A stretch of DNA of 50,828 bases, taken from Candidatus Zixiibacteriota bacterium (lineage in GTDB: Bacteria > Zixibacteria > MSB-5A5 > GN15 > FEB-12). The stretch's first letter is position 1, and every line of letters starts with the position of its first letter. The DNA is taken from the NCBI GenBank assembly GCA_030591625.1, contig JAUVAR010000001.1, positions 1-50,828 of the forward strand. Reading direction: 5' to 3'. Below are positions 27,961 to 50,828 of the stretch, piece by piece. A model generated the notes under the pieces. The model did no database searches and was not told the origin of the DNA. It saw nothing but the letters and a program-made list of their open reading frames with translations. The position numbers and the translations under genes are program-made.

Positions 27961-29214
27961 ATGTTTAAAAATTCGATTACAGTTCTTTTCATAGCCGTTT
28001 TTTTCTTATCTTTCCCAGCAATTGAGAAAACCGAAGCTTCTATATTCAAGTCTGGCGGCAATATACACATATCCAGACTTCACCAAATCGATGACGATCT
28101 TTACAGTTTTGGAGATGACATCCAAATCGACGGCACGATCGATGGTGACCTTATCTCAATAGGTGGACAAGTAACAATTCAAGGTGAAATCAAACGCTCA
28201 GCGAATCTTCTGGGCCGATCTATTGATCACTCAGGGACTGTTAACGGCTCTCTACGTGCATGCGGGCAGATTATCAATATCAGCGGCCGGGTGGGTGGCT
28301 CGGTACTCGCAGGTGGCGAACGCCTTACTCTTGCTCCTGAAGCGAGAGTAGAACGGGACCTCAATTTTTACGGCAAAATAATCTCTATCGATGGTATGGT
28401 TAAAGGAACTGTTCATGCCGGTGGTGAAAAAATAACTCTTACAGGTACTGTAACTGGTGATGTCTATCTGGAAGGAAATGAAATTGAGATTCTCCCTCCG
28501 GCCGTTATAGTAGGAAATCTGGTTTATACGAGCCCTAACGAAATTGATATTGATCAATCAGGTGTGAATATATTAGGTGATACTGAATGGCTCGGTAAAC
28601 TTGAAGATGAGGAAGATAACTCTAGCTCGGTTCAAATTGCTGTTGCCTTCTCTATGGCCTTAGCCGCCTTCCTATTCGGTTGGATAGCGATTAGACTATT
28701 TTCAAATCAGGTCAATGCAGCTCTTGATCAGCTTCACAACAAACTTGGTTTATCGCTTGGAATCGGATTTATCGGCCTCTTTGTAATCGCATTATGTATC
28801 ACAGTATTGGGGCTCGCATCTATCTCAGCACTTCTGGGTCGAGTACTTATCGCCTCGGATCAAACAATAATCGGTTCAATACTTATGATTGTGTCGCTTT
28901 TGTTGATTCCAATCGTCAGTTTGATTTCTGTAGCTGGTGGAGTTGTATTCTATAGTAGTTCTATTCTTGTGTCGCTATTTGCAGGACTTTTAATAACTGC
29001 GAAAAAAGGATCAGGCAATAATTCACCAAATCTGCTTGCACTTCTTGTGGGGTTGACTCTGACGTCGATACTATTTGCTATACCGATAATTGGTTGGATT
29101 ATTTGTCTGTTGGTAACCCTTACTGGAGCAGGTGCTATTTTCCTGGGATTCAAAGCAACCAGAAAAACTGCCCCTAGCAAAATCGAAAACAAGCCGACTT
29201 CTGGTTCTCAATAA
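27961..29214 (+). CDS. Membrane protein with an N-terminal bactofilin-like (polymer-forming, beta-helical repeat) region and a C-terminal multi-TM domain
   Basis: Signal/anchor segment, then ~200 aa of degenerate repeats (..I.IDGTIDGDLISIGGQVTIQGEI.. / ..INISGRVGGSVLAGGERLTL.. / ..ITLTGTVTGDVYLEGNEIEI..). About 5 hydrophobic helices follow. Confidence 0.55.
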   Translation: MFKNSITVLFIAVFFLSFPAIEKTEASIFKSGGNIHISRLHQIDDDLYSFGDDIQIDGTIDGDLISIGGQVTIQGEIKRSANLLGRSIDHSGTVNGSLRACGQIINISGRVGGSVLAGGERLTLAPEARVERDLNFYGKIISIDGMVKGTVHAGGEKITLTGTVTGDVYLEGNEIEILPPAVIVGNLVYTSPNEIDIDQSGVNILGDTEWLGKLEDEEDNSSSVQIAVAFSMALAAFLFGWIAIRLFSNQVNAALDQLHNKLGLSLGIGFIGLFVIALCITVLGLASISALLGRVLIASDQTIIGSILMIVSLLLIPIVSLISVAGGVVFYSSSILVSLFAGLLITAKKGSGNNSPNLLALLVGLTLTSILFAIPIIGWIICLLVTLTGAGAIFLGFKATRKTAPSKIENKPTSGSQ

Positions 29215-34633: not shown

Positions 34634-34665
34634 TAACAAAGGCCACTTCTTGAGAGAAGTGGCCT
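34634..34665 (-). terminator. Strong rho-independent terminator after the 1,571-aa gene
   Basis: Perfect 11-bp stem aggccacttct-tgag-agaagtggcct (34640-34665). On the minus strand it is followed by tttgtt. Confidence 0.8.
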
Positions 34666-34718
34666 TCTGATCCTGATCGATTGCGTTGCGGATATTTCGA
34701 TCGAGGTGCTTTTAATAT

Positions 34719-37700
34719 CTACTGTGGCGGTTGAGGTCCCGAGTTGTAGAGGAATCTGATCATGTAGGTCACATCACCAATATTAATATCATTGTCCTTA
34801 TCTACATCTGCTGATTCTGGAATCGCTGGCGCCTCGCCTCCACGGAAGAGATAGCCAATCAGCCAGGCCAGATCATTCATCGTGTATTTCTTGTTATTAT
34901 CAAGATCACCACGCAAGAATGATACAACCCTCAATACAGTTGAAACGGTGTCTGCTAATCCAAACGGATCAGTAGCTATAAATTCAATTGCGTACATTGA
35001 ATCAAGGTATGTATTGTCCGGGGTTACAGAATAGACACCAGAACCATTACCCGAATCTACAAATCCAGCAAACAATTGAGACCACATCGGGGTTGCTGTT
35101 AGTGTTATCAGGTCGAGGTCTGGTTCAATTGAACGAACAAGTATTTGAGAGAGTGCGTTTACTGCAATGTTAATAGTATCATTGATTGTGTTAGAGAAAT
35201 AAGGTGCCTGATTTCCTGCTTCAATCACATCGACCTGAATCGACTGTGAAATTGAAAGTCCTCTATCGTCAGTTGCAATAAACAAAATGTTATATGTTCC
35301 GGCCTGAGTAAAATCAGGAGAGAAGCGGAAAGTCCCAAACCCAGGGGTTGTGCTAAAAGTAGCATTGGCTGGACTACCTGTCATCGACAACATAGGAGCC
35401 GAGCTTCCATCAAAATCGGTAGCACCAATCTGGAAAGTAACGTTATCACCTTCAGTTACCGTGAATGGTCCTTCACCATTTATAAATACAAATTCAGGCG
35501 GGGCGTTGCGATCATTTACTGTAATCTGGACCGGAGCGGTAGCGTCCTTAACTAATCCAGGATCAGCTGCATCGGTAGCAAAGAATCTGATATAGTAGAA
35601 ACTCGACGATGTACCGCCTTGAGAGTAATCCGGGTAGAATGTAAGGACACCAATACCGTTACCCGAATCTACCATTACCATATTAGGTTCAGTCAAACTT
35701 GTTTCGCCATCTATTCTTGCTCCGATAGCAGGAATCGTTCCGTCAGGATCATCTGCAAAGACGACGTACACCAAAGTATCACCTTCAAAGACTGATGCTG
35801 GCCCCATAGTAACAATTCTTGGAGCTCTATTTGAATCAATAACGATGATTGAAACAAACTCTGTATCCATTACTGTTGGAACATCAAAATCCTCTGCAAG
35901 GATAAGAATATCATAACTGCCTTCTTGCAGGTCAGTCGGAATCCATGAGAACAATCCTGTGCCATCACGATTATCTGTTACAGTTGCACCAGTAGGGAGC
36001 AAGGCACCAGTAATTAGTGGTGGTTCTGTTCCATCGATATCCTGAGTGTAAATATTGAATGAAATACTTTTAAGCTCGATACCCTGCTGATCGGTTAAGG
36101 CCGCCAGCACAGGAAGCTGGTTACCAGCATCGGCAACATCAAGAGTTATTGTAATTGTATCAGCAAGAATACCGTCTGATGCAATCAAGTCGATCGCGTA
36201 AACGCCAGCATCAAGGAAGAACGGTTCGGCGATAAAACGACCAACACCGTCACTCTCATCGGTGAAACTTACAAATGCCGGCATACTGGCTCCAACCACA
36301 TTAAGTGTGATAGAACCTTCATCAGGGTCAGATGCAGTAACTACAAATTCAAGAGTGTCACCTTCAACCATTGTTGTAGCCGGCAGAGCACCAAAGACGG
36401 GAGCCTGATCACCTGCTTCATAGACTTGAACCAAGACTACTTCTTTAGCAGTTGAAAAACCATCACTCGCTTTGACTGTAACCGAATGCAAGCCGGACTG
36501 AACAAAGTTAGGGAAAAAAGTAAAGACACCACTGCCATCACCATTATCTACAAAAGTTGAGTTTTCAGGAAGCCCTGATCCAGAAAGCGTAGGAATAGCT
36601 CCGTCTGCATCAGTTGCTGAAACATTCAAAATCAGCAAATCACCTTCGGTAACTGTTTGCGCGCCTATTGGAGCGAGCACTGGTCGAATATTTGTAGTTA
36701 CGACACTAATTTCTATGTCAATTGTGGAAGAGAGTTGAGGCAGACCTTGATCGACTGCAAGGAACGAGACTGTATTGATTCCTGCCTGGGTAGCATCTGG
36801 TACAAAAGTATAAGTTCCTGTACCGTCACCATTATCTACAAACGATGCATTTGGTATTGCTGTCAAAACTGAGAGGAAGATAGAATTGGTAAGGTTCGGG
36901 TCGGTCGAGTCGGAAACAATGATCGTGAACGAAAGGGTATCACCCACAGCGATTCCAAACGGACCAGCAACAGTCCAAAGCGGAGCCTGGTTAACATCGG
37001 TTGTTGTAATAACAAACGATGTATTACCTGTTTGTTGCGGAGTACCAAAGTCGGTAGCGAAGAAATTAACTGTGTCGATACCAGCATCGATAAAGTCAGG
37101 TGAATAACTGAAACTCGCGGTTCCGTCACCATTATCTAAGAATGTATAATTCTGTAGAGAAGTGTTAACAGATAGAATTGGGAAGAATGCTCCACCATCA
37201 GGGTCGTTCGCCGTGATAGTAATGGCGAGAACATCTCCTTCGTTAACAGTTGTATCATTTTGAATTACAAAGATCGGAGCCTGGTTGCCTGATTCATTAA
37301 CTGTGATATCAACAAACTCAGAATCTGCAAGGGTGCCATCGGAGGCAATGAATGTTACTGTAATCAAACCGGCCTGATCAAAAGCAGGTGAGAAATCAAA
37401 CGATCCAGTTCCATCAAGATTATCTATGAATGTAGCATTGAGTGGAAGATTGACCGCACTCAGCGCAGGAATCGTTCCATCAACATCGCTGGCACTAACT
37501 GCAAATGCAAGGTTGGCACCTTCATTGGTAGTTTGAGCACCAATCGCTGCCAACACAGGAGTCTGATTACCTGCTTCGGCAATAGTGACATTCACAATAC
37601 CTGAGTCAGTTTCGATTCCATCAGTAGCGTAGAAAGAGATGTCATAAATACCGGCCTGAGTGAAATCAGGAGTCCAGCTAACCAAACCAACACCATTGAG

Positions 37701-39434
37701 CGAATCAACAAATGTTGCACCAACCGGCAGATTCAATGCAGACAGAACAGGTGCTGTACCATCACCATCAGAACCATTGATCAGGAAAGTGAGAATTACA
37801 TTTTCTGTCCCAACCTGTGCAACAGGTAATGCAAGTACCGGAGCCTGGTTAGTTTCATTAACTGTAATTTGTACAACCTGTGAGTCAACGGCTAAAGAGG
37901 CATCGAGAGCTTTAAACGTTACATTATAGACACCCGACTGAGTTAGATCAGGGTTGAATGTAAATGTTCCGCTACCATCAGTGTTGTCAACAAATGTAGC
38001 GTTGGCTGGAGCATTAACAACAGATAGAGTTGGAATTTCACCATCTGCATCGGTTGCCAGAACGGTCAGAACCAACGAACCACCTTCGACCATCGTCGTG
38101 TTATTCATTGCAGCAACTACAGGAGCCTGGTTGCCAGCTTCATTTATTGTAATGACGACTGCTTCTGAATCAACCAACAAGTTGTTTATCGCATCAGTAG
38201 CGTAGAACATAATATTGTACACGCCACCAGAAGTGAAGTCAGTCTGCCAATTGAATGTTCCGGTGCCGTCAAGATTGTCAACGTATGTTGCACCGGAAGG
38301 AAGGGCAGATGCACTCAACAAGGGGGTATCGCCATCAACGTCAGACGCCGAAGTACCAAAGGTAAGCAGATCATTTTCTAAAGCGCTTTGCGCTCCGATA
38401 GCTGCAAGAACCGGTTGAGTATTAGCATCGTAATTATATGCGCCGATCAAAGTGTTGGAGCTAAGAGCGGACGACAAATTTGAAATAACTATGTCAGCCG
38501 GGCCGATTGGACCCGGAGGAGTTGTGGCTGTAATTTGATATGGAGAAATGACTGTGGCGGAAACCGGGACGGCTGCGCCAAACTGAACAGAAACACCATT
38601 CGGATCGAAATCGTTGCCTGAAATCGAAACAGTTGTTCCACCTACGGCTGGGCCATTGGACGGACTAATGGAAGTAATAGTCGGTGCCTGTGAACCAGCA
38701 GAACTAATGGAGACTACTGTTGAATGAGATGAATAATTACCTGATGCATCTTCTGCAATCAGGACATAATCGTATAAGCTGATACCATCAACTGTGTTAT
38801 CAACAAAGAAGCTGTCAACCAAACCTGCATCCAAAAGATCGCCGGCAGGATTATCAACACGGAAAAACGATCCGGTTGAGCCTGAGTTGCGTCTGTAGAG
38901 ATGGTATGTTAAACCGGCTACACCATTCCATTCAACAAGGATAGTTGATCCGGAAAGAGCCGAACCAGCAAGACCAGTTGGAGCAGATGGCAAAGCAGCT
39001 ATAGCCAAAGCAATATTTTCCTGTTGGAATGAATTGCTCGGGATACTGCTTTCCAAATGATACGCTTCACCATTAACCAAATTGATGAAATAGTAATCGT
39101 ATGGATTACCTGGCGCTTCGGTTAAGTAATTTTGGAAATCATCAAACCAGTTACCGGCATCATATCCAGCTCCTGCCGATGTTTCGATTCGGATTTCTTC
39201 GTCGGTATCATCCAGGAAACCAACAAAGCTTATCTCACCATTCGCCGGTGTTGTCAGATCCGAATTGCTTACTGTCCCAAAGATTGAACCCTGGGCAAAA
39301 GCGGAGGACGACAACAACAGCGTCACTAACAGGGCAAGTACAGGCAACGTACTTACCGATGTTCTTTTTGTATTATACCGCACAGCGGTACCTCCATATA
39401 TGTTACAACCAACATTTCTCATATTCACTAACAC
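34719..39434 (-). CDS. Large secreted repeat protein: FN3-like, IPT/TIG, ~12 cadherin/He_PIG-like repeats and a C-terminal dockerin-like module
   Basis: Signal peptide (..LPVLALLVTLLLSSSAFAQ). IPT/TIG-like segment APTITSISPSNGPAVGGTTVSISGNDF... About 12 repeats of ~93-105 aa share the pattern P.L..IG.Q...EG..L.F...A.D.DG..P.LS...LP..A.F.DN.DG.G.F...P...Q.G.Y.V.F.A.D. A GGGAG Shine-Dalgarno overlaps the stop codon of the upstream giant ORF. The start is one of GTG 39434, GTG 39428 or ATG 39422. Confidence 0.85.
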   Translation of the reverse strand: MLVNMRNVGCNIYGGTAVRYNTKRTSVSTLPVLALLVTLLLSSSAFAQGSIFGTVSNSDLTTPANGEISFVGFLDDTDEEIRIETSAGAGYDAGNWFDDFQNYLTEAPGNPYDYYFINLVNGEAYHLESSIPSNSFQQENIALAIAALPSAPTGLAGSALSGSTILVEWNGVAGLTYHLYRRNSGSTGSFFRVDNPAGDLLDAGLVDSFFVDNTVDGISLYDYVLIAEDASGNYSSHSTVVSISSAGSQAPTITSISPSNGPAVGGTTVSISGNDFDPNGVSVQFGAAVPVSATVISPYQITATTPPGPIGPADIVISNLSSALSSNTLIGAYNYDANTQPVLAAIGAQSALENDLLTFGTSASDVDGDTPLLSASALPSGATYVDNLDGTGTFNWQTDFTSGGVYNIMFYATDAINNLLVDSEAVVITINEAGNQAPVVAAMNNTTMVEGGSLVLTVLATDADGEIPTLSVVNAPANATFVDNTDGSGTFTFNPDLTQSGVYNVTFKALDASLAVDSQVVQITVNETNQAPVLALPVAQVGTENVILTFLINGSDGDGTAPVLSALNLPVGATFVDSLNGVGLVSWTPDFTQAGIYDISFYATDGIETDSGIVNVTIAEAGNQTPVLAAIGAQTTNEGANLAFAVSASDVDGTIPALSAVNLPLNATFIDNLDGTGSFDFSPAFDQAGLITVTFIASDGTLADSEFVDITVNESGNQAPIFVIQNDTTVNEGDVLAITITANDPDGGAFFPILSVNTSLQNYTFLDNGDGTASFSYSPDFIDAGIDTVNFFATDFGTPQQTGNTSFVITTTDVNQAPLWTVAGPFGIAVGDTLSFTIIVSDSTDPNLTNSIFLSVLTAIPNASFVDNGDGTGTYTFVPDATQAGINTVSFLAVDQGLPQLSSTIDIEISVVTTNIRPVLAPIGAQTVTEGDLLILNVSATDADGAIPTLSGSGLPENSTFVDNGDGSGVFTFFPNFVQSGLHSVTVKASDGFSTAKEVVLVQVYEAGDQAPVFGALPATTMVEGDTLEFVVTASDPDEGSITLNVVGASMPAFVSFTDESDGVGRFIAEPFFLDAGVYAIDLIASDGILADTITITLDVADAGNQLPVLAALTDQQGIELKSISFNIYTQDIDGTEPPLITGALLPTGATVTDNRDGTGLFSWIPTDLQEGSYDILILAEDFDVPTVMDTEFVSIIVIDSNRAPRIVTMGPASVFEGDTLVYVVFADDPDGTIPAIGARIDGETSLTEPNMVMVDSGNGIGVLTFYPDYSQGGTSSSFYYIRFFATDAADPGLVKDATAPVQITVNDRNAPPEFVFINGEGPFTVTEGDNVTFQIGATDFDGSSAPMLSMTGSPANATFSTTPGFGTFRFSPDFTQAGTYNILFIATDDRGLSISQSIQVDVIEAGNQAPYFSNTINDTINIAVNALSQILVRSIEPDLDLITLTATPMWSQLFAGFVDSGNGSGVYSVTPDNTYLDSMYAIEFIATDPFGLADTVSTVLRVVSFLRGDLDNNKKYTMNDLAWLIGYLFRGGEAPAIPESADVDKDNDINIGDVTYMIRFLYNSGPQPPQ
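34722..34916 (-). other. Dockerin-like duplicated Ca-binding (F-hand) module at the C-terminus of the 1,571-aa protein
   Basis: Two segments, GDLDNNKKYTMNDLAWLIGYLF and ADVDKDNDINIGDVTYMIRFLY. Both fit the dockerin pattern D.(D/N).(D/N)..(I/V)...D...(L/M)..(Y/F)(L/I). Confidence 0.65.
34917..38423 (-). repeat. Array of ~12 diverged coding repeats (~280-315 bp each) in the 1,571-aa gene
   Basis: Repeat boundaries are visible in translation as recurring ..(I/V)TVNE(A/S/T)GNQ(A/T)P(V/I).. junctions. Confidence 0.8.
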
Positions 39435-39441
39435 TCACTCC

Positions 39442-42400
39442 CTAAGGGGCAGGAAACGTTCCTGCAGCAGCAACATTAGCCTGATAAGGCTTGCCTGCAC
39501 GGACTGTGAAGTTAGTGCCAAATCCAGCCGCAAAACGCGAGATGTAGCTCTGCGAGCCGGATATGAATTGATTTAGTGTATTCAAATTGCCCGGGATTGA
39601 GTTTATCAAATCCTGTGCAACTGTAAAGTCATTTTCAAATTCAAACGGAACCATGATAAAGTTGAAATCAGTAGTTGCCGTTGTTACCATCGAGTAGCTA
39701 ACTGTTCCCGAGTCCGGAATATTACCGGCAGTCGAGAAGACTGCATTAGTTGCTGCATTAACTTGATATACAGTGCCAACATTCACCGAGAAGTTAACAC
39801 CAAATCCTGCTGCAAAGCGCGATTCGAATGACTGCGAAGCTGCGATGAAATTGTTCACCGTCAAAACGTTTGATCCACCAATTGCATTGATGAGTCCAAT
39901 GGCATCGGTTATTCCGCTATTTGTAAACGGAATGCCTACCAGATTGAAGTTTGTCGTTGCAGTCGCGACCAATTGGTAATCATATTCGCCGACTCGATTT
40001 GAGATCGCCGACCGATTACCGTAAATATCTACTACATCGACAGTATAGAAGTACTGATTAACTGTATCGCCGACAACATCCGCTCCACCAATATTATTAT
40101 CGGTGAAGATCGATGTAATGCCGTCCGAATATCCGACAGAATCTATAGAGCTCGGCGTAAAGTAAGCACTGGTACCACGATAGATCGTGTAATGATCTAC
40201 TGTGATAGCAAAGCCTGAGGTGTCCGAAGAAACTGTGCTCCAGGCGAGATCAATTACATCGGCAACTATTTGGATTGTCAAATCAGTAACTGCCAATGGT
40301 GGAGCACCGTTGACGACATTTATAAGAACTGTATCAGGGGCCGAGAATAGGGAGCCATCATCTACAGTAAGTTCAAATTCATAGTTACCCGGAATACCAG
40401 GAACAAAATCAGGAGTCTGAGAAAGCGTGTCAGAAAGTGTCACTGCTACTCCGGAGACCTGCTGCCAATGATATCCAAGAAGGTCGCCGTCAGGATCGGA
40501 AGATCCGAAACCATCCAAGAAGACCGGGCTGTTGGTTGGAACTGTATTCTGATCAAAACCTGCATCGGCAAGCGGTGAACGATTAACATCGTTAACAGTA
40601 ATTACAACAACCTCTGAATCGGCAAGAGCACCGTCATCGGCAATGAAGGTAACATTGTATATACCTGCATCGGTGTACGATGGTGTCCAGTCAAATGATC
40701 CGGTGCCGTCAAAGTTATCTATGAACGTTGCGCCGACAGGAAGATCAACAACCAGTAGAGTAGGGATCGTAGCATCGATATCTGTTGCAGAGATTGTAAA
40801 GTAAAGGTTCAATGTTTCGTTCGTAACCTGCGAGCCAATTGCTGCAAGAATCGGTATCTGGTTGCCCGCTTCATTAACTGTAATCGTTACTATTTCTGTA
40901 TCCGATAATCCACCGTCATCCGCGATAAACGTTACGTTGTAGATACCACCATCGGTGAACAACGGAGTCCAATCAAATGATCCGGTACCGTCTAAGTTAT
41001 CTGTGAACGTCGCGCCAGTTGGCATATTAAGGGCTGACAATGCAGGGATTGTTGCATCAACATCTGTAGCAGAAATTGTGAAGTTAAGATTTATATTTTC
41101 AGCTGTAGCCTGAGCACCAATTGAAGCAAGAACAGGAATTTGGTTGCCTGCTTCATTAACAGTTATTACAACAACTTCAGAATCAGCAAGGGCGCCGTCA
41201 TCGGCAATAAATGTAACGTTGTAAATGCCTGCTTCAATAAACGTCGGTGTCCAGTTGAACGATCCAGTGCCATCACCATTGTCAGTAAACGTTGCACCAG
41301 TTGGTACGTTAAGCGCAATCATCGTAGGAATAGTAGCGTCAATGTCTGTTGCTGAGATAGCAAAGTTAAGATTTATATTTTCAGTCGTTGACTGCGCACC
41401 AATTGAAGCGAGAACAGGAATCTGGTTACCTGCTTCATTGACTGTGATCACAACAAGTTCAGTATCGGCAAGTGCGCCATCATCGGCGATGAATGTAAGA
41501 TTGTAAACACCTGCTTGAATATACGTTGGTGTCCAGTCGAACGATCCAGTTCCGTTTAAGTTATCAGTAAATGTTGCTCCAGTCGGAAGACCAGTAGCAG
41601 AGAGTGCAGGTATTGTTGCATCAACGTCTGTTGCTGAGATAGCAAAGTTCAGATTTATATTTTCAGTCGTTGACTGTGCACCTATTGTAGCAAGAACTGG
41701 AATTTGGTTGCCTGCTTCAATTACTGTGATCACAACAAGTTCAGTATCAGCAAGTCCGCCATCATCGGCGATGAACGTTACATTATAAACACCAACTTCG
41801 ATAAACGAAGGGGTCCAGTCGAATGATCCGGTGCCGTCTGAATTATCTATAAATGTTGCTCCTGCCGGAACGTTAAGAGCCGACAATGCAGGGATTGTTG
41901 CATCAACATCTGATGCTGAGATAGCAAAGTTTAGATTGACGTTTTCAGTCGTTGACTGCGCACCAATTGTCGCAAGGACAGGAGCCTGGTTACCAGCTTC
42001 ATTAACTGTAATTACAACAAGTTCGCTGTCGGCAAGTGCGCCATCATCGGCGATGAACGTTACGTTGTAGATACCACCATCAGTAAACAAAGGTGTCCAG
42101 TCGAATGTTCCGGTACCGTCTAAGTTATCGGTGAACGTAGCACCTGTTGGTACGTTAAGCGCAATCATCGTAGGAATAGTAGCGTCAATATCTGTTGCTG
42201 AGATAGCAAAACTGAGATTAACATTTTCAGTAGTTGACTGAGCACCAATTGAAGCGAGAACAGGAATCTGGTTACCGGCTTCATTGACTGTGATTACAAC
42301 AATTTCTGAATCGGCAAGGACGCCATCATCGGCGATGAATGTAACGTTGAACACACCTGCTTGAATATACGTTGGTGTCCAGTCGAACGATCCGGAGCCG

Positions 42401-45400
42401 TCACCATTATCGGTGAACGTTGCACCTGTTGGGATGTTTAGAGCTGACAATGCCGGAATCGTTGCATCAACATCTGATGCTGAGATTCCGAAGTTAAGAT
42501 TTATATTTTCAGTCGTTGCCTGTGCACCTATTGTTGCAAGAACTGGAATTTGGTTACCTGCTTCAATTACTGTGATCGCTACTATTTCAGTATCAGCAAG
42601 TCCGCCATCATCGGCGATGAACGTTACATTATAAACACCAACTTCGATAAACGAAGGGGTCCAGTCAAACGATCCGGTGCCGTCTGAATTATCTATAAAC
42701 GTTGCTCCTGCCGGAATGTTCAGAGCCGACAATACCGGAATCGTTGCATCAACATCTGTTGCCGATATCGCAAAGTTAAGATTTATATTTTCTGTCGTTG
42801 CCTGTGCACCAATTGTTGCAAGCAGAGGAGTCTGGTTGCCTGCTTCATTGACAGTAACAACAACCTGCTCCGAATCAACGGCCGACGAATCATCGGTTGC
42901 ATAAAACGTAATATTGTAAATACCAGCCTGTACATAGCTTGGATTAAAATCAAATGTTGCAGTGCCATCACTATTGTCAACGAACGAAGCATTGGTCGGC
43001 AGAGTCGAAGTTGACATCGTAATCAGGCCAACTTCTGCGTCAGTTGCAGAAACTGCGAAGTTCAAGTTAGCACCTTCAGTCACAGCCTGGGCACCAATGC
43101 CTGCGAGCAACGGGTTCTGGTTGCCGGCATCAACGATTGTAATTGTAACTATTTCAGAATCAACAAAGATCCCGTCAGAAGCTCGGAAGGTGACATTATA
43201 AATACCCGACTGCAAGTAACCAGGAGTCCAATTAAATGATCCGGTGCCATCGCCGTTCGCCGTGAAAGTTGCACCTGAAGGAAGCGCTGTCCAACTAAGT
43301 ACAGGAACTGTGCTGTCAGGATCAGTTGCACTCACTACAAAATTGAGTGTTGTTGCTTCACCAGTTGATTGAGCACCAATCGCCGCAAGGATCGGAGACT
43401 GGTTACCCGCTTCACCAACAACTATCGAGATAGCTTCTGAATCAAATGCACCACTATCATCGGTGGCAAAGAATGTAACACTATAAAGTCCGCTCTGAGT
43501 AAAGTCCGGTGTCCAATCAAAGGTCGCAGTGCCGTCACCATTATCTGTTAGCGTTGCGCCTGTTGGAAGACCGGTCGCAGTCATAATCGAGAATGTCTGA
43601 TCGAGATCGCTTGAGCTGGCGACAAAGTTTAGATTGGTGTTTTCCGAAATATTTTTAGCACCTATCGCTGCAAGTACAGGTGTCTGGTTACCGATATCAA
43701 TAACTGTGATTGTAACAATTTCACTGTCAGAAAGAACTCCATCGTCGGCGATGAACGTTACATTATATATACCTGCATCAACATAACCCGGCGTGTAATC
43801 AAAGGTAGCGGTGCCATCACCATTGTCTGTTAATGTTGCACCTGTTGGAATGTTAAGAGCAGACAGAGCAGGAATTGTTGCATCAACATCTGATGCTGAT
43901 ATTACAAAGTTAAGATTGACAGTTTCAGTCGTTGACTGTGCACCTATTGATGCAAGCAGAGGAATTTGGTTGCCGGCTTCGTTAACAGTTATGACAACAA
44001 GTTCACTATCTGCAAGACCGCCATCATCAGCGATAAACGTAACATTATAAATGCCTGCTTCAATGAAGGTCGGAGTCCAGCTGAATGATCCGGTGCCGTC
44101 TCCATTGTCGGTAAACGTTGCGCCTGTTGGAAGATTTAAAGTTGATAGCGCAGGGATTGTTGCATCATCATCCGAGGCCGAAATTGCAAAACTTAGATTT
44201 ATATTTTCAGTTGTTGTCTGTGCACCAATCGATGCAAGCAGAGGAATCTGGTTGCCTGCTTCGTTAACAGTTATTACAACGAGCTCACTATCGGCAAGTG
44301 CTCCGTCGTCGGCAATAAACGTAACGTTGTATATACCTGCTTCAATAAACGTCGGTGTCCAACTGAATGATCCAGTACCGTCTAAATTATCTGTGAACGT
44401 TGCGCCAACTGGAAGTCCTACAACCAATAGAGCAGGAATCGTTGCGTCAACGTCTGAGGCCGAGATGGAAAAGTTAAGATTCAGATTTTCAGTTGTTGCT
44501 TGTGCACCAATTGAAGCGAGAACAGGAATCTGACTGCCTGCTTCATTAACAGTTATTACAACAAGTTCGCTATCGGCAAGACCGCCATCATCAGCGATGA
44601 ATGTAACATTATAAACACCAGCTTCAACGAACGAAGGGGTCCAACTAAATAATCCAGTTCCGTCTCCATTGTCAGTAAACGTTGCGCCAGTCGGAAGTCC
44701 TACTGTTGACAGCCCTGGAATCGTTGCATCTATATCTGTTGCTGAGATAGAAAAACTGAGATTTATATTTTCTGTAGTTGTCTGTGCACCAATCGCTGCC
44801 AGAACAGGAATCTGGTTACCTGCTTCGTTAACCGTTACCACAACGATTTCACTATCAGCAAGAAGACCGTCATCAGCTATAAATGTAACGTTATAAATAC
44901 CTGCTTCAACGAACGACGGTGTCCAACTGAATGATCCGGTGCCGTCACCATTGTCAGTAAACGTTGCGCCAGTCGGAAGATTAACAGACGAAAGGACTGG
45001 AATCGTTGCATCAAGATCAGAAGCTGAGATAACAAAGTTAAGATTTATATTTTCCGTTGTTGACTGCGCTCCGATAGCTGCAAGAACAGGATTCTGATTT
45101 CCTGATTCGTTCACCGTTAGTGTGACTTCTTCAGAATCAACCGCCAAAGAATCATCGGTTGCATAGAACGTAATATTGTAAACACCATTTTGAGTAAAGT
45201 CAGGACTGATATCGAAAATTCCGGTACCGTTACCATTGTCAATAAACGATGCGTTGGCCGGCAATGACGATGTTGTCAAAACAACCTGACCACCCTCGGC
45301 ATCAACAGCAGATATCCCAATATTCAGATTGCTGCCTTCGTTCACAAGCTGAGCGCCTATTGTTGCAAGGACTGGATTTTGGTTGCCTGCATCATTGACA

Positions 45401-48400
45401 GTAACTGTCACAATTTCTGATACAAAAGCGGTCGAATCGTCAGTCGCCGTGAATGTAATATTGTAAATACCCGACTGAGTAAAGTCAGGTGAGAAATCAA
45501 ATGTTCCGGTACCATCACCATTGTCAACAAATGTTGCGCCAGCCGGAAGTGCTGAAGTTGTCAGTACAATTAAACCACCTTCAATATCAGAAGATGAAAC
45601 AGCAAAGTTAAGATTTGCACCTTCGGTAACAACCTGCGCACCAATTGATGCAAGCACAGGGCTCTGGTTGCCAATTTCATTAACTGTTATTGTGACAACT
45701 TCATTGTCCGAAAGAGTACCGTCATCGGCAGTGAACGTTACATTATATATACCGGCATCAACAAAACCAGGCGTGTAATCAAAGGTAGCGGTGCCATCAC
45801 CATTGTCTGTAAATGTTGCACCTGACGGAAGACCTGTCGCCGAGAAAGCAGGAGTTGTGCCATCAACATCTGAGGCTGTTATTGTAAAGTTTAGATTTAC
45901 TGTTTCAGTTGTTGACTGTGCGCCAATCGCTGCAAGCACAGGCGCTTGGTTACCGGCTTCGTTAACAGTTATTACTACAAGTTCACTATCGGAAAGCAGG
46001 CCGTCATCTGCGATGAATGTAACGTTGTAAATGCCATCTTCAACGAACGAAGGAGTCCAGCTGAATGATCCTGTTCCGTCTAAGTTATCTGTGAACGATG
46101 CGCCTGTTGGAAGATTAACAGTCGAAAGAACTGGAATCGTTGCATCAACATCTGAGGCTGAGATCGGAAAACTAAGATTTATATTTTCTGTCGTTGACTG
46201 TGCACCAATCGCTGCAAGCACAGGTGTTTGGTTGCCAGCTTCATTAACTGTTATTACTACGAGCTCACTATCGGCAAGACCGCCATCATCAGCGATAAAC
46301 GTTACATTATAAACGCCAGCTTCAACGAACGTCGGTGTCCAGCTGAATGAGCCTGTGCCATCTAAGTTATCGGTGAACGTTGCACCAACCGGAAGTCCTA
46401 CCGTTGAAAGGGCAGGGATTGTTGCATCTATATCAGTTGCTGAGATTGCAAAGTTTAGATTGATGTTTTCAGTTGTTGCTTGTGCACCAATCGTTGCAAG
46501 GACTGGAATCTGGTTGCCTGCTTCATTAACTGTTATAACAACAACTTCACTATCTGCAAGCAGGCCATCGTCGGCAATGAATGTAACGTTATAAACGCCT
46601 GCTTCAATAAACGACGGAGTCCAGCTGAATAATCCGGTGCCGTCTCCATTGTCAGTAAACGTTGCTCCAGTCGGAAGATTAACAGTCGAAAGAACTGGAA
46701 TCGTTGCATCTATATCTGTTGCAAAAATACCAAAGCTAAGATTTATATTTTCAGTTGTTGACTGTGCGCCAATCGCTGCAAGCACAGGCGCTTGGTTACC
46801 GGCTTCGTTAACAGTTATTACTACAAGTTCACTATCTGCAAGCAGGCCGTCATCTGCTATAAATGTAACGTTGTAAACACCTGCTTCAACGAATGACGGA
46901 GTCCAGCTGAATGAACCTGTTCCATCTAAGTTGTCTGTGAACGATGCGCCAACAGGGAGTCCCACCGTTAAAAGAATTGGAATCGTTGCATCAACATCTG
47001 AGGCTGAGATGGAAAAACTTAGATTTATATTTTCAGTTGTTGACTGCGCACCGATAGCTGTAAGAACAGGAATCTGGTTTCCTGCTTCATTAACAGTTAT
47101 GACAACAAGTTCACTATCGGCAAGTCCGCCATCATCAGCAATGAATGTAACATTATAAACACCAGCTTCAATGAACGAAGGGGTCCAACTAAATAATCCT
47201 GTGCCGTCTCCATTGTCAGTAAACGACGCTCCAGATGGCATATTAAGGGCTGACAATATTGGTGTCGTTGCATCTATATCTGAGGCCGAAATTGCAAAGT
47301 TAAGATTAACATTTTCAGTTGTTGACTGTGCACCGATAGTTGCGAGTACAGGTGCCTGGTTGCCTGCTTCGTTAACTGTTATCACAACAACTTCACTATC
47401 TGCAAGCGCTCCGTCACCTGCTATAAACGTAACGATGTAAACACCAGACTGAATAAACGACGGGGTCCAATTGAATGATCCGGTTCCGTCTAAGTTATCT
47501 GTGAACGATGCACCACTCGGGAGGTCAACAATTGAAAGGGTTGGAGTCGTTGCATCTACGTCAGCAGCGGTAATCACGAAATTTAGATTAACATTTTCAG
47601 TAGTTGCCTGCGCACCTATTGATGTAAGCAAAGGTGCCTGGTTGCCTGCTTCATTAACTGTTATAACAACGAGTTCACTATCTGCAAGTGCTCCATCATC
47701 AGCAATAAACGTAACGTTGTAAACACCTGCTTCAATGAATGTCGGTGTCCAGCTGAATGAACCTGTTCCGTCTAAGTTATCGGTGAACGTTGCACCAGTT
47801 GGCAGATTAGCTGTTAATAGAGATGCTATTGTACCATCGACATCACTCGACGTAATCACAAAGCTGAGATTTATATTTTCAGTAGTTGACTGCGCACCGA
47901 TAGTTGCAAGGACAGGTGCCTGGTTGCCTGCTTCATTAACAGTAATTGCAACAAGCTCTGAGTCAGCAAGAGCACCATCACCTGTTATGAATGTAACATT
48001 ATAAGTACCAACATCGGTGAATGACGGCGTCCAATTAAAAGATCCGGTGCCATCAAAATTATCGACGAACGTGGCGCCCGAAGGAAGAGCAAGTGCGGAC
48101 AAGGTAGGAATAGTAGAATCCGGGTCTGATCCGTTAACCGTGAAAGACAACAAAGTACCCTCAGATACAAATTGCGGTCCAACCGGTGTCAGTACAGGTG
48201 CCTGATTTCCAGCTTCACTTACAGTTAGGAAAACAAGTTCAGAGTCAATTGCCACGCCGTCAGAAATATAGAACGATAAGCTGTAGATATCTGCCTGAAT
48301 GAAATTCGGATTAAAATCTAATGTACCGGTGCCATCGCCATTATCTAAGAATGTTGCATTAGCCGGAAGGGTTGAAGTAGTAAGAGTAAGAGCTGTTGAG

Positions 48401-50828
48401 TCGGCATCTGTTCCACTTATAACCAAATTAAGATTGTCACCCTCGGTTACGAACTGATTGCCAACCGCCGCAAGAATCGGCAACTGGTTGACATTGTTGA
48501 CAGTTATTGTTACAAGTTCGGAAGCGATAAGATCACCATCGGTGACAAAGAATGTTATGTCAAAGCTGCCAAACTGATAATAGGTCGGACTAAACGAAAG
48601 ATCACCGGTGCCATCACCATTGTCAATAAATGTAGCATTTGATGGAAGAGCACTGGTCGTCAATGTTAGTGTTTCGAGATCCGGATCTGTGCTATTTACT
48701 GTAAACCCTAAGATGCTATTTTCATCAACCAGCTGCGAACCGATACTGCTTAGAATCGGTGAACGATTGATATTGGTAACCGTTATCGTAACAATTTCAG
48801 AATGAACTGCAGCTGTGTCATCGGTCGCACTAAATGTAATGTTATAAATTCCAGACTGGAAATAATCCGGATTGAAATTAAATGTACCGGTTCCATCAAG
48901 ATTATCGATGAACGAAGCACCCGACGGAAGAGCCGATGTTGTCAGGGTTGGTATAGTGCTATCAGCGTCAGTAGCTGAAATAGTGAAATTCAAATTACTG
49001 TTTTCATCAACCAACTGACTTCCAATAGCTGCTAATACAGGCGTCTGATTGCCGGCATCATTGACAGTTACTGTCACAACTTCTGAAGAGAACGCTGAAC
49101 TATCGTCAGTTGCCGTAAATGTAATATCATAAGAACCGGACTGAATGTAGTTTGGATTGAAATCAAATGTACCGGTGCCATCACCGTTATCTATAAAGGT
49201 TGCATTCGCCGGAAGAGCTGAAGTTGTCAGAACAATTGGTCCAAACTCAGCATCAGTAGCCGAGACAACAACGTTAAGATTGTTTCCTTCAATTACATTC
49301 TGAGAACCGATTGATGCAATCAGAGGTAATTGGTTGCCGGCGTCATTGACGGTGATAAACACAACCTCAGTATCTGACGTAATACCATCATGAGCACGGA
49401 AAACAACCGAACTTATTCCCGACTGCAGGAAGTCAGGGTTGAAATCGAAAGTCGCGGTGCCATCACCATTGTCAACAAATGTCGCATTGGCGGGGAGAGC
49501 TGAACTTGTAAAAGTCGGGATCGTGGCATCATCGTCAGAGGCAGTAAGCAAGATATTAAGATTGCCACCTTCTGTAATAGTCTGTGGGCCAACTGCTGTA
49601 AGAACAGGTGCCTGGTTACCAGCTTCATTGACTGTTATACTGATTTGTTCAAAGTCAGTAAGTGAACCATCAGATGCAGTGAAAGTAATATCATAAATTC
49701 CAGCCTGTGTAAAATCAGGATTGAACGAGAAGTTTCCTGTGCCGTTACCATTGTCAACAAATGAAGCACCCGTTGGAAGCAACGAATTTGTCAATGCAGG
49801 GAAAGTGCCATCGGGGTCTGTTGATGAAATTCCAAAAGCTAATAGAATACCCTCTGTGACTGAACGATTTCCAATCGTTGCCAATACTGGAGATTGGTTA
49901 CCTGCTTCACCAACAGAAATCGCTACTATTTCTGAATCTACTGCAAGTGAGTCATCGGTTGCATAGAAAATAACCTGATAAACACCGGCTTGAGTGAAAT
50001 CCGGATTCCAATCAAATGTAGCAGTTGCATCACCATTATCTGTGAAGTTTGCACCGGATGGCAGAGTTGAAGTTGAAAGTACAATACTTCCTAATTCAGG
50101 GTCTGTTGCTGACATACCAAAGTTTATATTGATCCCTTCGGTAACAGCTTTTGGACCGATCGACGAAAGAATCGGATTCTGATTTCCAGGATCAGTAACA
50201 GTTATTGTCACTGTCTCAGAATCAACTGTTGCTGAATCATCAGTTGCATAAAATGTTACATTATATATACCTGATTGAAGGTAGTCAGGATTGAAACCAA
50301 ACGTTCCGGTGCCATTCAAATTATCCGTGAACGTTGCATTAGCCGGTAAACCTGATGTTGTCAGAACAGGAATTGTTCCGTCGGCATCCGAAGCTGTGAT
50401 TCCAAAATTAAGACTCGCACCTTCGTTAATTGACTGAGCGCCAATCACTGCAAGGACAGGATCGAGATTGACCTGATTGACAGTTATTGTCACTGTCTCA
50501 GAATCAACCGCTAAACTATCATCAGTCGAATAGAATGTTACGTCGTAACTACCAGCCTGCGTGAAGTCAGGGGTGAAGTCAAAAGTTCCAGTTCCATCAA
50601 GATTATCTATGAACGTTGCATTAGTCGGCAGAGCCGAAGTTGTCAGAACAGGAATCGTTCCGTCGGCATCACTCGCTGAAATACCAAAGTTTAGATTTGC
50701 GCCTTCGTTAATATTCTGTGCACCGATTGCTGCAAGAACTGGATCCAAATTGATCTGGTTGACAGTTATTGTCACTATCTCTGAATCAGCTGCGGCTGAA
50801 TCATCAGTCGAATAGAATGTAACATCGT
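39442..50828 (-). CDS. Giant surface repeat protein, 5'-truncated by the window edge (more than 3,794 codons): 36 cadherin/He_PIG-like repeats, PKD-like, FN3-like, and a duplicated novel C-terminal module
   Basis: The frame is open from base 50826 to the TAG at 39442-39444. The tracked 'M' at 50775 is an internal GTG: the preceding codons read DVTFYSTDDSAAADSEI and continue the repeat. See the repeat features and findings for details. Confidence 0.9.
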   Translation of the reverse strand, partial: DVTFYSTDDSAAADSEIVTITVNQINLDPVLAAIGAQNINEGANLNFGISASDADGTIPVLTTSALPTNATFIDNLDGTGTFDFTPDFTQAGSYDVTFYSTDDSLAVDSETVTITVNQVNLDPVLAVIGAQSINEGASLNFGITASDADGTIPVLTTSGLPANATFTDNLNGTGTFGFNPDYLQSGIYNVTFYATDDSATVDSETVTITVTDPGNQNPILSSIGPKAVTEGININFGMSATDPELGSIVLSTSTLPSGANFTDNGDATATFDWNPDFTQAGVYQVIFYATDDSLAVDSEIVAISVGEAGNQSPVLATIGNRSVTEGILLAFGISSTDPDGTFPALTNSLLPTGASFVDNGNGTGNFSFNPDFTQAGIYDITFTASDGSLTDFEQISITVNEAGNQAPVLTAVGPQTITEGGNLNILLTASDDDATIPTFTSSALPANATFVDNGDGTATFDFNPDFLQSGISSVVFRAHDGITSDTEVVFITVNDAGNQLPLIASIGSQNVIEGNNLNVVVSATDAEFGPIVLTTSALPANATFIDNGDGTGTFDFNPNYIQSGSYDITFTATDDSSAFSSEVVTVTVNDAGNQTPVLAAIGSQLVDENSNLNFTISATDADSTIPTLTTSALPSGASFIDNLDGTGTFNFNPDYFQSGIYNITFSATDDTAAVHSEIVTITVTNINRSPILSSIGSQLVDENSILGFTVNSTDPDLETLTLTTSALPSNATFIDNGDGTGDLSFSPTYYQFGSFDITFFVTDGDLIASELVTITVNNVNQLPILAAVGNQFVTEGDNLNLVISGTDADSTALTLTTSTLPANATFLDNGDGTGTLDFNPNFIQADIYSLSFYISDGVAIDSELVFLTVSEAGNQAPVLTPVGPQFVSEGTLLSFTVNGSDPDSTIPTLSALALPSGATFVDNFDGTGSFNWTPSFTDVGTYNVTFITGDGALADSELVAITVNEAGNQAPVLATIGAQSTTENINLSFVITSSDVDGTIASLLTANLPTGATFTDNLDGTGSFSWTPTFIEAGVYNVTFIADDGALADSELVVITVNEAGNQAPLLTSIGAQATTENVNLNFVITAADVDATTPTLSIVDLPSGASFTDNLDGTGSFNWTPSFIQSGVYIVTFIAGDGALADSEVVVITVNEAGNQAPVLATIGAQSTTENVNLNFAISASDIDATTPILSALNMPSGASFTDNGDGTGLFSWTPSFIEAGVYNVTFIADDGGLADSELVVITVNEAGNQIPVLTAIGAQSTTENINLSFSISASDVDATIPILLTVGLPVGASFTDNLDGTGSFSWTPSFVEAGVYNVTFIADDGLLADSELVVITVNEAGNQAPVLAAIGAQSTTENINLSFGIFATDIDATIPVLSTVNLPTGATFTDNGDGTGLFSWTPSFIEAGVYNVTFIADDGLLADSEVVVITVNEAGNQIPVLATIGAQATTENINLNFAISATDIDATIPALSTVGLPVGATFTDNLDGTGSFSWTPTFVEAGVYNVTFIADDGGLADSELVVITVNEAGNQTPVLAAIGAQSTTENINLSFPISASDVDATIPVLSTVNLPTGASFTDNLDGTGSFSWTPSFVEDGIYNVTFIADDGLLSDSELVVITVNEAGNQAPVLAAIGAQSTTETVNLNFTITASDVDGTTPAFSATGLPSGATFTDNGDGTATFDYTPGFVDAGIYNVTFTADDGTLSDNEVVTITVNEIGNQSPVLASIGAQVVTEGANLNFAVSSSDIEGGLIVLTTSALPAGATFVDNGDGTGTFDFSPDFTQSGIYNITFTATDDSTAFVSEIVTVTVNDAGNQNPVLATIGAQLVNEGSNLNIGISAVDAEGGQVVLTTSSLPANASFIDNGNGTGIFDISPDFTQNGVYNITFYATDDSLAVDSEEVTLTVNESGNQNPVLAAIGAQSTTENINLNFVISASDLDATIPVLSSVNLPTGATFTDNGDGTGSFSWTPSFVEAGIYNVTFIADDGLLADSEIVVVTVNEAGNQIPVLAAIGAQTTTENINLSFSISATDIDATIPGLSTVGLPTGATFTDNGDGTGLFSWTPSFVEAGVYNVTFIADDGGLADSELVVITVNEAGSQIPVLASIGAQATTENLNLNFSISASDVDATIPALLVVGLPVGATFTDNLDGTGSFSWTPTFIEAGIYNVTFIADDGALADSELVVITVNEAGNQIPLLASIGAQTTTENINLSFAISASDDDATIPALSTLNLPTGATFTDNGDGTGSFSWTPTFIEAGIYNVTFIADDGGLADSELVVITVNEAGNQIPLLASIGAQSTTETVNLNFVISASDVDATIPALSALNIPTGATLTDNGDGTATFDYTPGYVDAGIYNVTFIADDGVLSDSEIVTITVIDIGNQTPVLAAIGAKNISENTNLNFVASSSDLDQTFSIMTATGLPTGATLTDNGDGTATFDWTPDFTQSGLYSVTFFATDDSGAFDSEAISIVVGEAGNQSPILAAIGAQSTGEATTLNFVVSATDPDSTVPVLSWTALPSGATFTANGDGTGSFNWTPGYLQSGIYNVTFRASDGIFVDSEIVTITIVDAGNQNPLLAGIGAQAVTEGANLNFAVSATDAEVGLITMSTSTLPTNASFVDNSDGTATFDFNPSYVQAGIYNITFYATDDSSAVDSEQVVVTVNEAGNQTPLLATIGAQATTENINLNFAISATDVDATIPVLSALNIPAGATFIDNSDGTGSFDWTPSFIEVGVYNVTFIADDGGLADTEIVAITVIEAGNQIPVLATIGAQATTENINLNFGISASDVDATIPALSALNIPTGATFTDNGDGSGSFDWTPTYIQAGVFNVTFIADDGVLADSEIVVITVNEAGNQIPVLASIGAQSTTENVNLSFAISATDIDATIPTMIALNVPTGATFTDNLDGTGTFDWTPLFTDGGIYNVTFIADDGALADSELVVITVNEAGNQAPVLATIGAQSTTENVNLNFAISASDVDATIPALSALNVPAGATFIDNSDGTGSFDWTPSFIEVGVYNVTFIADDGGLADTELVVITVIEAGNQIPVLATIGAQSTTENINLNFAISATDVDATIPALSATGLPTGATFTDNLNGTGSFDWTPTYIQAGVYNLTFIADDGALADTELVVITVNEAGNQIPVLASIGAQSTTENINLNFAISATDIDATIPTMIALNVPTGATFTDNGDGTGSFNWTPTFIEAGIYNVTFIADDGALADSEVVVITVNEAGNQIPVLASIGAQATAENINLNFTISATDVDATIPALSALNMPTGATFTDNLDGTGSFDWTPLFTDGGIYNVTFIADDGGLSDTEIVTITVNEAGNQIPILAAIGSQVTNETLNLYFTISATDIDATIPTLLVVDLPVGATFIDNFDGTGSFDWTPSYTDAGIYNVTFIADDGALADSEVVVITVNDVNRSPLADAGFDQNTVPTNSPVFLDGFGSSDPDGDLLGYHWQQVSGVAVTLSDTLSQTPDFVPGIPGNYEFELTVDDGSLFSAPDTVLINVVNGAPPLAVTDLTIQIVADVIDLAWSTVSSDTSGFAITVDHYTIYRGTSAYFTPSSIDSVGYSDGITSIFTDNNIGGADVVGDTVNQYFYTVDVVDIYGNRSAISNRVGEYDYQLVATATTNFNLVGIPFTNSGITDAIGLINAIGGSNVLTVNNFIAASQSFESRFAAGFGVNFSVNVGTVYQVNAATNAVFSTAGNIPDSGTVSYSMVTTATTDFNFIMVPFEFENDFTVAQDLINSIPGNLNTLNQFISGSQSYISRFAAGFGTNFTVRAGKPYQANVAAAGTFPAP
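39445..39984 (-). repeat. Tandem duplication of an ~85-90-aa C-terminal module of unknown family
   Basis: YQLVATATTNFNLVGIPF..LINAIGG..LTVNNFIAASQSFESRFAAGFGVNFSVNVGTVYQVNA.. aligns with YSMVTTATTDFNFIMVPF..LINSIPG..NTLNQFISGSQSYISRFAAGFGTNFTVRAGKPYQANV... Confidence 0.75.
40576..50828 (-). repeat. Array of 36 tandem coding repeats plus one partial, period ~282 bp (94 aa)
   Basis: Consensus ..NQ.PVLA.IGAQ.TTENINLNF.ISA.DVDATIPALS..NLPTGATFTDN.DGTGSF.WTP.F.EAG.YNVTFIADDG.LADSE.VVITVNEAG. Counted unit by unit in the translation. The array ends at ..VNDVNRS|PLADAG (40575/40576). Confidence 0.9.

Follow-up and report, generated by a model that had tools for sequence, protein, structure and literature searches.

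The 50,828-nucleotide (nt) stretch of DNA analysed here (positions 1 to 50,828 of contig JAUVAR010000001.1, assembly GCA_030591625.1; hereafter the window) comes from a metagenome-assembled genome (MAG) of a Candidatus Zixiibacteriota bacterium. On its reverse strand it carries a gene for a long repeat protein that ends in a dockerin and follows directly on a giant repeat open reading frame (ORF). We favour, with moderate confidence, the reading that this protein is an enzyme-free, very acidic, Sec-exported fibre whose dockerin would plug into the cohesin of a scaffoldin that belongs to the same gene cluster and is anchored via a secretion system of type IX (T9SS). An initial annotation, made from the sequence of the window, had proposed that the dockerin protein is docked onto another cell-surface component to build a composite fibre. 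This proposal is supported, in so far as all computed evidence agrees with it.

According to this model, the Sec pathway would export a fibre that consists of a head, an Fn3-like domain, a TIG domain, 12 cadherin-like immunoglobulin (Ig) repeats as rod and the Ca-binding dockerin. The dockerin would then dock in a Ca-dependent manner into the cohesin of a scaffoldin encoded directly upstream of the giant ORF. The scaffoldins would leave the cell via the T9SS, and the PorU sortase would attach them to the outer membrane, which is probable because each of them ends in a T9SS C-terminal domain (CTD). The fibre would be held on the cell by its C-terminus, with the head in the distal position.

The C-terminal dockerin module

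The end of the protein had been described as two F-hand-like segments, as in type-I dockerins, and the domain searches bear this out. The Pfam family Dockerin_1 (PF00404) matches over profile positions 2-56 of 57. The score is 22.4 bits for the whole 1571-residue stop-to-stop translation, just below the gathering cut-off of 22.9 bits, 27.6 bits for the last 165 residues alone and 28.9 bits in a six-frame search of the genome; 30 of 32 orthologues are matched as well. The two Ca loops (D-L-D-N-N-K-K-Y-T-M-N-D and D-V-D-K-D-N-D-I-N-I-G-D) both have acceptable ligands at positions 1, 3, 5, 9 and 12. Invariant in the 32 orthologues are the G, D(1) and D(12) of both loops and also a family-specific GPxP after each dockerin helix. 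The conservation goes beyond the Ca ligands and includes the helix faces past each loop (YLFRxGPxP and FLYxxGPxPP). When a profile of the last 70 residues was compared with the sequences of the PDB, 25 matches were obtained, all of them dockerin-bearing, with a best E value of 2e-12.

Failure of the dockerin hidden Markov model (HMM) together with predicted disorder had been named as the outcome that would speak against a dockerin. However, the HMM was passed and AlphaFold2 modelled the last 165 residues (last repeat plus dockerin) with a mean pLDDT of 94.7, without any disordered segment and with values of at least 93 in the module itself. The helices at positions 113-124, 133-136 and 146-157 of this model follow the expected order of helix, short helix and helix. 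Judged from sequence and model, the C-terminal module is a genuine, conserved type-I dockerin.

The clostridial type-I dockerins (PDB 1ohz, 2ccl, 1daq, 3ul4) consist of the same two-F-hand Ca-binding module, and like the dockerins with dual binding mode the fibre dockerin has internally symmetric halves. In difference to the clostridial modules it sits on an adhesin-like fibre of a diderm candidate phylum, carries the GPxP after each helix and has a conserved C-terminus GP(R/Q)PPQ.

Cohesins and further dockerins in the same genome

The initial annotation had noted that no cohesin was in sight. This is true for the window, but a Pfam scan of the genome, which had been suggested as a check, gave 14 dockerin ORFs and several CTD-ended cohesin proteins in the MAG (2.6 Mb, 340 contigs, 78.8% complete). 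The Cohesin family (PF00963) scored above its cut-off in two of them. The first, on contig C327, has 819 residues with a cohesin (36.2 bits), two Big_9 repeats and a CTD. The second, on C137, carries two cohesin-like modules (26.0 bits) and a CTD. A third protein (C208) combines a borderline cohesin match with a CTD, and in a fourth one (C289), the counterpart in this MAG of the ScaC-like protein described below, the cohesin match is weak (11.4 bits). A T9SS sorting domain is found at the end of every cohesin protein in the MAG. The PorU sortase is encoded as well (528 bits), and the CTD end of the PorU model is matched by about 23 further ORFs.

The lack of a cohesin in the window is an assembly artefact, since the contig end cuts the giant ORF, the C327 protein sits on a separate contig of 3.9 kb and the scaffoldin genes of the relatives adjoin the giant ORF. 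When the 40 relatives are counted together with the MAG, PF00963 has matches in 41 of 41 genomes and scores above the cut-off in 40 of them.

Pfam was run on six of the 14 dockerin ORFs, which encode an M28 peptidase, an M1 peptidase, two S8 peptidases, a BACON-like protein and a DUF7451 protein. No glycoside hydrolase (GH) was found among these six and no carbohydrate-binding module (CBM) on the scaffoldins; therefore the system is not a cellulosome sensu stricto. At least two sequence classes of dockerins are present in the MAG, the fibre type without cysteine (Cys) and the common, Cys-flanked type. Most dockerins of the MAG belong to the latter and show the pattern 'CCxGxxGNxD ... DIGDLTxLIDYLFI ... 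C' near the end (contigs C237, C95, C183, C184, C321, C340, C290, C101 and C112), which suggests a putative disulfide-clasped subclass. On C101 and C112 the dockerin is placed at the N-terminus and not at the C-terminus.

A conserved cluster of scaffoldin and fibre genes

Loci with head, Fn3-like and TIG domains are found almost exclusively in MAGs of Candidatus Zixiibacteriota / Zixibacteria; some are labelled 'Ignavibacteria' and stem from one binning project. Full-length orthologues of the fibre protein (1564-1583 residues, 47-52% identity) follow directly on the giant ORF in four genomes (G013, G014, G023 and G027), and a longer one of 2040 residues occupies the same position in G015. Conservation of the pairing of giant ORF and dockerin ORF had been proposed as a further check, and synteny of the two genes is kept in 46 of 47 species loci. 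Of the 44 complete family members, only two lack a terminal dockerin, namely L072, which is truncated, and L080, which ends in a T9SS CTD.

In relatives for which the upstream region was fetched, the genes before the fibre genes encode scaffoldins, here named ScaC-like, ScaA and ScaB. ScaC-like carries a dockerin-like segment and a CTD. ScaA has two cohesins with two tandem-95 repeats between them, then a dockerin-like segment and a CTD, and ScaB has a cohesin and a CTD. The order ScaC-like, ScaA, ScaB and fibre gene(s) is kept in G013, G018, G022, G024 and G027, in the last case across the record origin, and in part in G001 (no ScaC-like seen) and G010 (no ScaA seen). In G014, two cohesin-plus-CTD genes (828 and 911 residues) are located immediately upstream of the giant ORF. 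The first of the two, which is the second gene upstream of the giant ORF, encodes an orthologue of the 819-residue C327 protein of our MAG over its full length (43.5% identity over 809 residues). When the coordinates of cohesins and fibre genes are combined, at least 17 of 40 relatives have a cohesin match at a distance of 0.3-11 kb from the fibre genes, with two or three scaffoldin genes directly upstream of the giant fibre and dockerin fibre genes. In G001, a genome of the same genus, ScaA and ScaB precede the first part of the giant gene, which is then broken off by a gap of 100 N. This scaffold gap inside the giant gene, and not a loss, explains why the dockerin fibre is not seen there.

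The scaffoldins also contain an internal pair of dockerin-like segments (e.g., GDINLNGLASEISDVIYFTNYF ... SDLNMDGILASISDLVALINQVV) that is not called by Pfam and was noted in C327 (ScaA), in C289 and in L032:686-3172. Docking of one scaffoldin to another is therefore possible. In G021, contig C16 has a single open frame of 8656 residues with the same repeats and a fibre-type dockerin at its end.

Surface attachment seems to be achieved with either of two ends. At L080:5758-12531 (+) the same head module is present, a region of about 400 residues of unrelated sequence plus a T9SS CTD takes the place of the dockerin and no foot-ending ORF (see below) precedes the gene. In addition, the N-terminal domain of the 286-residue T9SS protein encoded downstream of the fibre gene (about 170 residues, no Pfam family) shows 36% identity over 200 residues to the N-terminal domain of a 783-residue dockerin-ended protein on C95 (~440-2920). 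This exchange at L080 and the occurrence of one passenger domain on either anchor point to CTD and dockerin as interchangeable surface-attachment ends. The 286-residue protein was also considered as a hidden cohesin. This was rejected, as there is no Pfam cohesin, BLAST matches to the cohesin proteins of the genome run through the CTD only and the N-terminal domain matches that of the dockerin protein C95:2720.

Head, rod and export of the fibre protein

The protein has its own signal peptide, as had been claimed; the 30-residue Sec-type signal read from the sequence is conserved among the orthologues. The mature protein, calculated for the stop-to-stop ORF from residue 49 onwards, has about 159 kDa, a pI of about 4.05 (183 D+E versus 27 K+R) and no Cys. 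With a mean column identity of 72% the head is the most conserved portion. The predicted structure, of high confidence (pLDDT 92.5), shows the head as a beta-sandwich with the Fn3-like domain behind it, and a Foldseek search with the head model returned only generic tandem Fn3/cytokine-receptor-like beta-sandwiches.

In agreement with the initial annotation, the rod is made of the repeat family of the giant protein in more diverged form. An HMM built from the repeats delimits 12 copies with a mean pairwise identity of 36% (range 22-54%), compared to 61% among the giant ORF's 36 copies. The families Big_9, Cadherin_5, He_PIG and 'tandem-95' of Pfam and NCBIfam are matched. The tandem-95 family NF012211 scores 138.2 bits over 6 stretches at a curated cut-off of 90, and the rod is thereby a member of the tandem-95 / Big_9 / He_PIG giant surface proteins. 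In difference to the family in general, whose definition is silent on anchoring, the rod is flanked here by a conserved head and a dockerin.

No enzyme family, GH or CBM was found in the fibre protein by the Pfam and NCBIfam scans, which is what the earlier description as a non-enzymatic, adhesin-type protein had stated. The same scans show no T9SS CTD (Por_Secre_tail / TIGR04183), so that the protein is not T9SS type-A cargo. It is not an RTX-type giant adhesin of the type I secretion system either, since no RTX family is matched and an N-terminal Sec-type signal peptide is present.

Alternative explanations

Several results weigh against a dockerin fibre plugged into the cluster scaffoldins. 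The fibre protein has no recognisable signal for translocation across the outer membrane, and matches to the GspD (secretin) model, present in 24 of 25 genomes with 2-4 per genome, all stay below the curated cut-off. In this MAG the C327 contig and the window are not physically joined, their linkage being derived from the relatives, and ScaB was not recovered from the 78.8% complete assembly, where only CTD-level matches were obtained. Furthermore, the top 50 Foldseek matches of the model of last repeat and dockerin were all Ig-like and contained no dockerins. As the Ig repeat dominated the query, this search is uninformative on the dockerin fold and the sequence-profile search against the PDB was used instead.

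The dockerin might also bind a stand-alone T9SS-anchored cohesin, that of C137 or C208, while the cluster scaffoldins serve the Cys-flanked dockerins of the peptidases. The two or more dockerin classes and the several cohesin proteins outside the cluster are compatible with this possibility. However, we regard it as rather improbable, because ScaA and ScaB are linked to the fibre genes in at least 17 of the relatives, which speaks for a functional pairing.

It is unlikely that the module lacks a cohesin partner and acts as a Ca-binding end cap. Its task would then be to stabilise the final Ig repeat, to associate with itself or to bind a ligand other than a protein, as has been put forward for some dockerin repeats outside cellulosomes. 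Many dockerins of the non-cellulosomal kind have no known partner (Peer et al., 2009, as cited in PMC8542988 and PMC10066038), and in Omnitrophota a giant ORF that contains nine dockerin domains was interpreted as an adhesin (PMC10066038). However, cohesins are encoded in the MAG and in all 40 relatives, nearly always above the Pfam cut-off. The module is single and terminal, it is replaced by a T9SS anchor in one homologue and its helix faces are conserved in addition to the Ca ligands.

Still less likely is a role of the dockerin as an export handle, by which the fibre would bind a CTD-bearing scaffoldin in the periplasm, be carried piggy-back across the outer membrane by the T9SS and then stay attached. 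Proteins with a C-terminal dockerin have no outer-membrane translocation signal, every cohesin protein has a T9SS CTD and no GspD match reaches the curated cut-off in the 25 genomes, which would all be in line with such a route. On the other hand, secretin-family genes are present and could serve a route similar to the type II secretion system, and a rod of about 159 kDa or a fibre of more than 3800 residues would be mechanistically demanding as co-passenger. To our knowledge no piggy-back transport has been described for the T9SS.

The possibility that the ORF is a copy of the giant gene's repeats, decaying or wrongly assembled and with no function of its own, as its shared repeat family and the nearby contig end might suggest, can practically be dismissed, because the frame of 1571 codons is intact, full-length orthologues with the same domain order and with diverged yet individually conserved repeats exist in many genera, and head, dockerin and Shine-Dalgarno (SD) site with start codon are all conserved.

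Start codon and operon structure

The intact frame covers 34719..39434 (-), counted from stop to stop, and the initial annotation had placed the gene start 7 nt behind the stop of the giant ORF with a GGGAG as SD sequence. This GGGAG is present and overlaps the TAG of the giant ORF, yet it lies just 3 nt from GTG 39434, and the assignment is probably wrong. The NCBI record uses ATG 39422 as start. When the junctions of 42 orthologous loci were aligned, a GGAG(G), a spacer of 6-8 nt that is variable in sequence and a GTG (rarely ATG) were found to be kept in at least 33 of them; this conserved start is located 29-36 codons ahead of the mature N-terminus QGS. In two orthologues (L053 and L102) an in-frame stop is located just upstream of the conserved start, and in a group of eight loci an indel of 2 nt puts the upstream ATG out of frame. 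On account of these three observations GTG 39383, with the SD sequence GGAGG at 39391-39395, is most likely the true start. GTG 39434 and ATG 39422 were rejected in favour of the conserved GGAG-N6-8-GTG arrangement.

Co-transcription with the giant ORF, which had been suggested at the same time, is still likely, the 58-nt spacer notwithstanding; the SD sequence that overlaps the stop codon is probably not the one used. The dockerin fibre gene is probably the last gene of the operon, since a hairpin follows its stop and the next gene has a promoter-like site of its own.

Between the stop of the giant ORF and the SD sequence (39396-39441 (-)) a purine-rich GGAG-like stretch and a motif 'ATGA(A/G)AAA' are retained in many of the orthologous junctions. 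They may represent an AU-rich enhancer, a mini-ORF or an alternative start.

A possible joint between the giant protein and the dockerin fibre

In the visible part of the giant ORF neither a dockerin nor a T9SS CTD was found. Its last residues form a 'foot'. Of the 41 genomes, 16 contain this foot, and a long fibre with the head is present in precisely the same 16. A foot-ending ORF is situated directly upstream of the head-bearing gene in 46 of the 47 species loci, L080 being the exception; in 3 of the 46 a small paralogue with head, Fn3-like domain and dockerin is inserted between the two. In the foot-less genomes G010, G016, G018, G022 and G024 this position is taken by a single ORF that combines repeats and dockerin; in four cases it was seen directly after ScaB.

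These patterns allow the tentative and rather doubtful proposal that the head is a receptor for the foot and that the two chains form one composite split fibre. The foot of the giant protein would dock on the head of the dockerin fibre, and the dockerin on the T9SS-anchored cohesin. The outcome would be a three-tier plug-in filament of scaffoldin, dockerin fibre and giant fibre with more than 5300 residues and non-covalent joints, equivalent to the single repeat-plus-dockerin ORF of the foot-less relatives. The small paralogues with head, Fn3-like domain and dockerin (about 300-520 residues, e.g., on C340) might then serve as short adaptors for the foot-head joint. Against this proposal it has to be considered that the co-occurrence of foot and head could result from block inheritance of two adjacent gene ends. 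If the proposal is true, the foot-head joint would be a new, self-assembling protein-protein connector beside cohesin and dockerin, with a possible use in protein engineering.

The paralogue in our MAG (C340:8845-9759 (+), 304 residues) has no parts other than a signal peptide, the head, the Fn3-like domain and a Cys-flanked dockerin. Many relatives have comparable paralogues of 300-520 residues, which in some cases (G031, G037) are placed between the giant gene and the gene of the long fibre.

Comparison with known dockerin systems

Cohesin-dockerin pairs are best known from Gram-positive cellulosomes. The closest functional analogue of the fibre protein is CttA of Ruminococcus flavefaciens. 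There, the sca cluster (ScaC-ScaA-ScaB-CttA-ScaE) encodes CttA as a non-enzymatic dockerin protein that is plugged into the cell-anchored cohesin of ScaE (PMC5301203). In both organisms the scaffoldin cluster encodes a non-enzymatic, dockerin-ended protein and scaffoldins with both cohesins and dockerins (here dockerin-like segments). CttA in its ScaE socket makes the cell stick to its substrate, and the Zixibacteria fibre would likewise be plugged into a cell-anchored cohesin. R. flavefaciens is a Gram-positive Firmicute that uses sortase and LPXTG for attachment to peptidoglycan, in contrast to the probable attachment to the outer membrane by T9SS CTD and PorU here. Besides CBM-like modules CttA possesses an X-module-dockerin dyad, whereas the fibre protein has 12 cadherin-like repeats, a new head and no X module. 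Finally, the dockerin cargo scanned here is made of peptidases and not of glycoside hydrolases.

The closest phylogenetic precedent is 'Ca. Stygibacter' (Cloacimonadota), like the Zixibacteria a diderm of the FCB (Fibrobacteres-Chlorobi-Bacteroidetes) group. A cellulosome-like system was described for it in silico, with a cohesin scaffoldin that has a T9SS-type CTD and with dockerins on peptidases and on a non-enzymatic mucin-like protein (PMC8542988). CTD-bearing cohesin scaffoldins and dockerin peptidases are thus common to both. However, 'Ca. Stygibacter' has one scaffoldin of 3755 residues with tandem cohesins and CBMs, whereas the Zixibacteria have three of about 800-950 residues, and a giant fibre pair, a foot/head arrangement or a conserved cluster of this layout was not reported (PMC8542988). 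Giant ORFs with non-cellulosomal dockerins were also found in Omnitrophota and interpreted as adhesins (PMC10066038).

In the literature searched, no paper pairs Zixibacteria with dockerin or cohesin, and the cluster was not found described there. Dockerin and cohesin-dockerin system are of the known kind; the anchoring is probably through the T9SS, and the fibre pair with its foot/head arrangement is undescribed. Cohesin-dockerin connectors appear to be coupled to the T9SS in a candidate phylum of diderms that was never cultured, where they would hang adhesin-like fibres and peptidases, not cellulases, on the cell. The cluster, conserved across Zixibacteria, offers a testable model for the attachment of sediment and groundwater bacteria to particles or partners. 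For binding work it provides defined small modules, namely one dockerin, five to seven cohesins, one foot and one head.

Coordinates and other features of the window

Table 1. Features of the window discussed in the text (positions in the 50,828-nt stretch).
Feature	Coordinates	Strand	Remarks
774-aa T9SS-CTD protein	24677-27001	(-)	InlB B-repeat (Flg_new_2) + transthyretin-like domain
GH35/GH42-like protein (exo-beta-D-glucosaminidase-like, 727 aa) and gamma-glutamyltransferase	29208-33138	(-)	downstream of fibre gene
T9SS-CTD protein, 286 aa	33391..34251	(-)	downstream of fibre gene; own promoter-like site; position kept in some relatives
GC-rich hairpin, 12 bp	34639..34666	(-)	53 nt past stop of fibre gene; possible terminator with weak U-tail; not called by simple terminator scan
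Dockerin fibre gene	34719..39383	(-)	conserved GTG start (most likely); product 1554 aa; stop-to-stop ORF runs to 39434
Type-I-like dockerin	34749..34910	(-)	two F-hand segments (DLDNNKKYTMND..., DVDKDNDINIGD...); last ~65 aa
12 tandem-95 / Big_9 / cadherin-like Ig repeats	34920..38423	(-)	aa 338-1505; Pfam, NCBIfam, own repeat HMM
IPT/TIG domain	38457..38684	(-)	Pfam
Fn3-like beta-sandwich	38700..38972	(-)	predicted structure
N-terminal 'head'	38985..39293	(-)	~103 aa, beta-sandwich, no Pfam family; invariant GAGY...WFDDFQN
Sec signal peptide, 30 aa	39294..39383	(-)	MRYNTKRTSVSTLPVLALLVTLLLSSSAFA|QG, cleavage AFA|QG; no lipobox Cys; by sequence reading
Spacer, 58 nt	39384..39441	(-)	giant ORF stop (TAG 39442-39444) to likely start; SD GGAGG 39391-39395, 7 nt before GTG 39383
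Giant repeat ORF	39442..50826	(-)	5' end cut by contig end; 3794 codons visible; 36 tandem-95/He_PIG repeats + PKD + ~290-aa C-terminal 'foot'
Giant ORF 'foot'	39445-40314	(-)	last ~290 aa; internal duplication of ~95-aa unit
Antisense ORF, 160 aa	44051-44533	(+)	inside giant gene; probably not a gene

Downstream of the fibre gene, the position of the genes for the GH35-like protein and the gamma-glutamyltransferase is kept in G015 and G016, and that of the GH35-like gene also in G013. The region at 24-28 kb, around the gene for the 774-residue T9SS-CTD protein, has a lower G+C content of 0.37-0.38 versus 0.41-0.45. The antisense ORF has 'homologues' in relatives probably only because it lies opposite conserved repeats.

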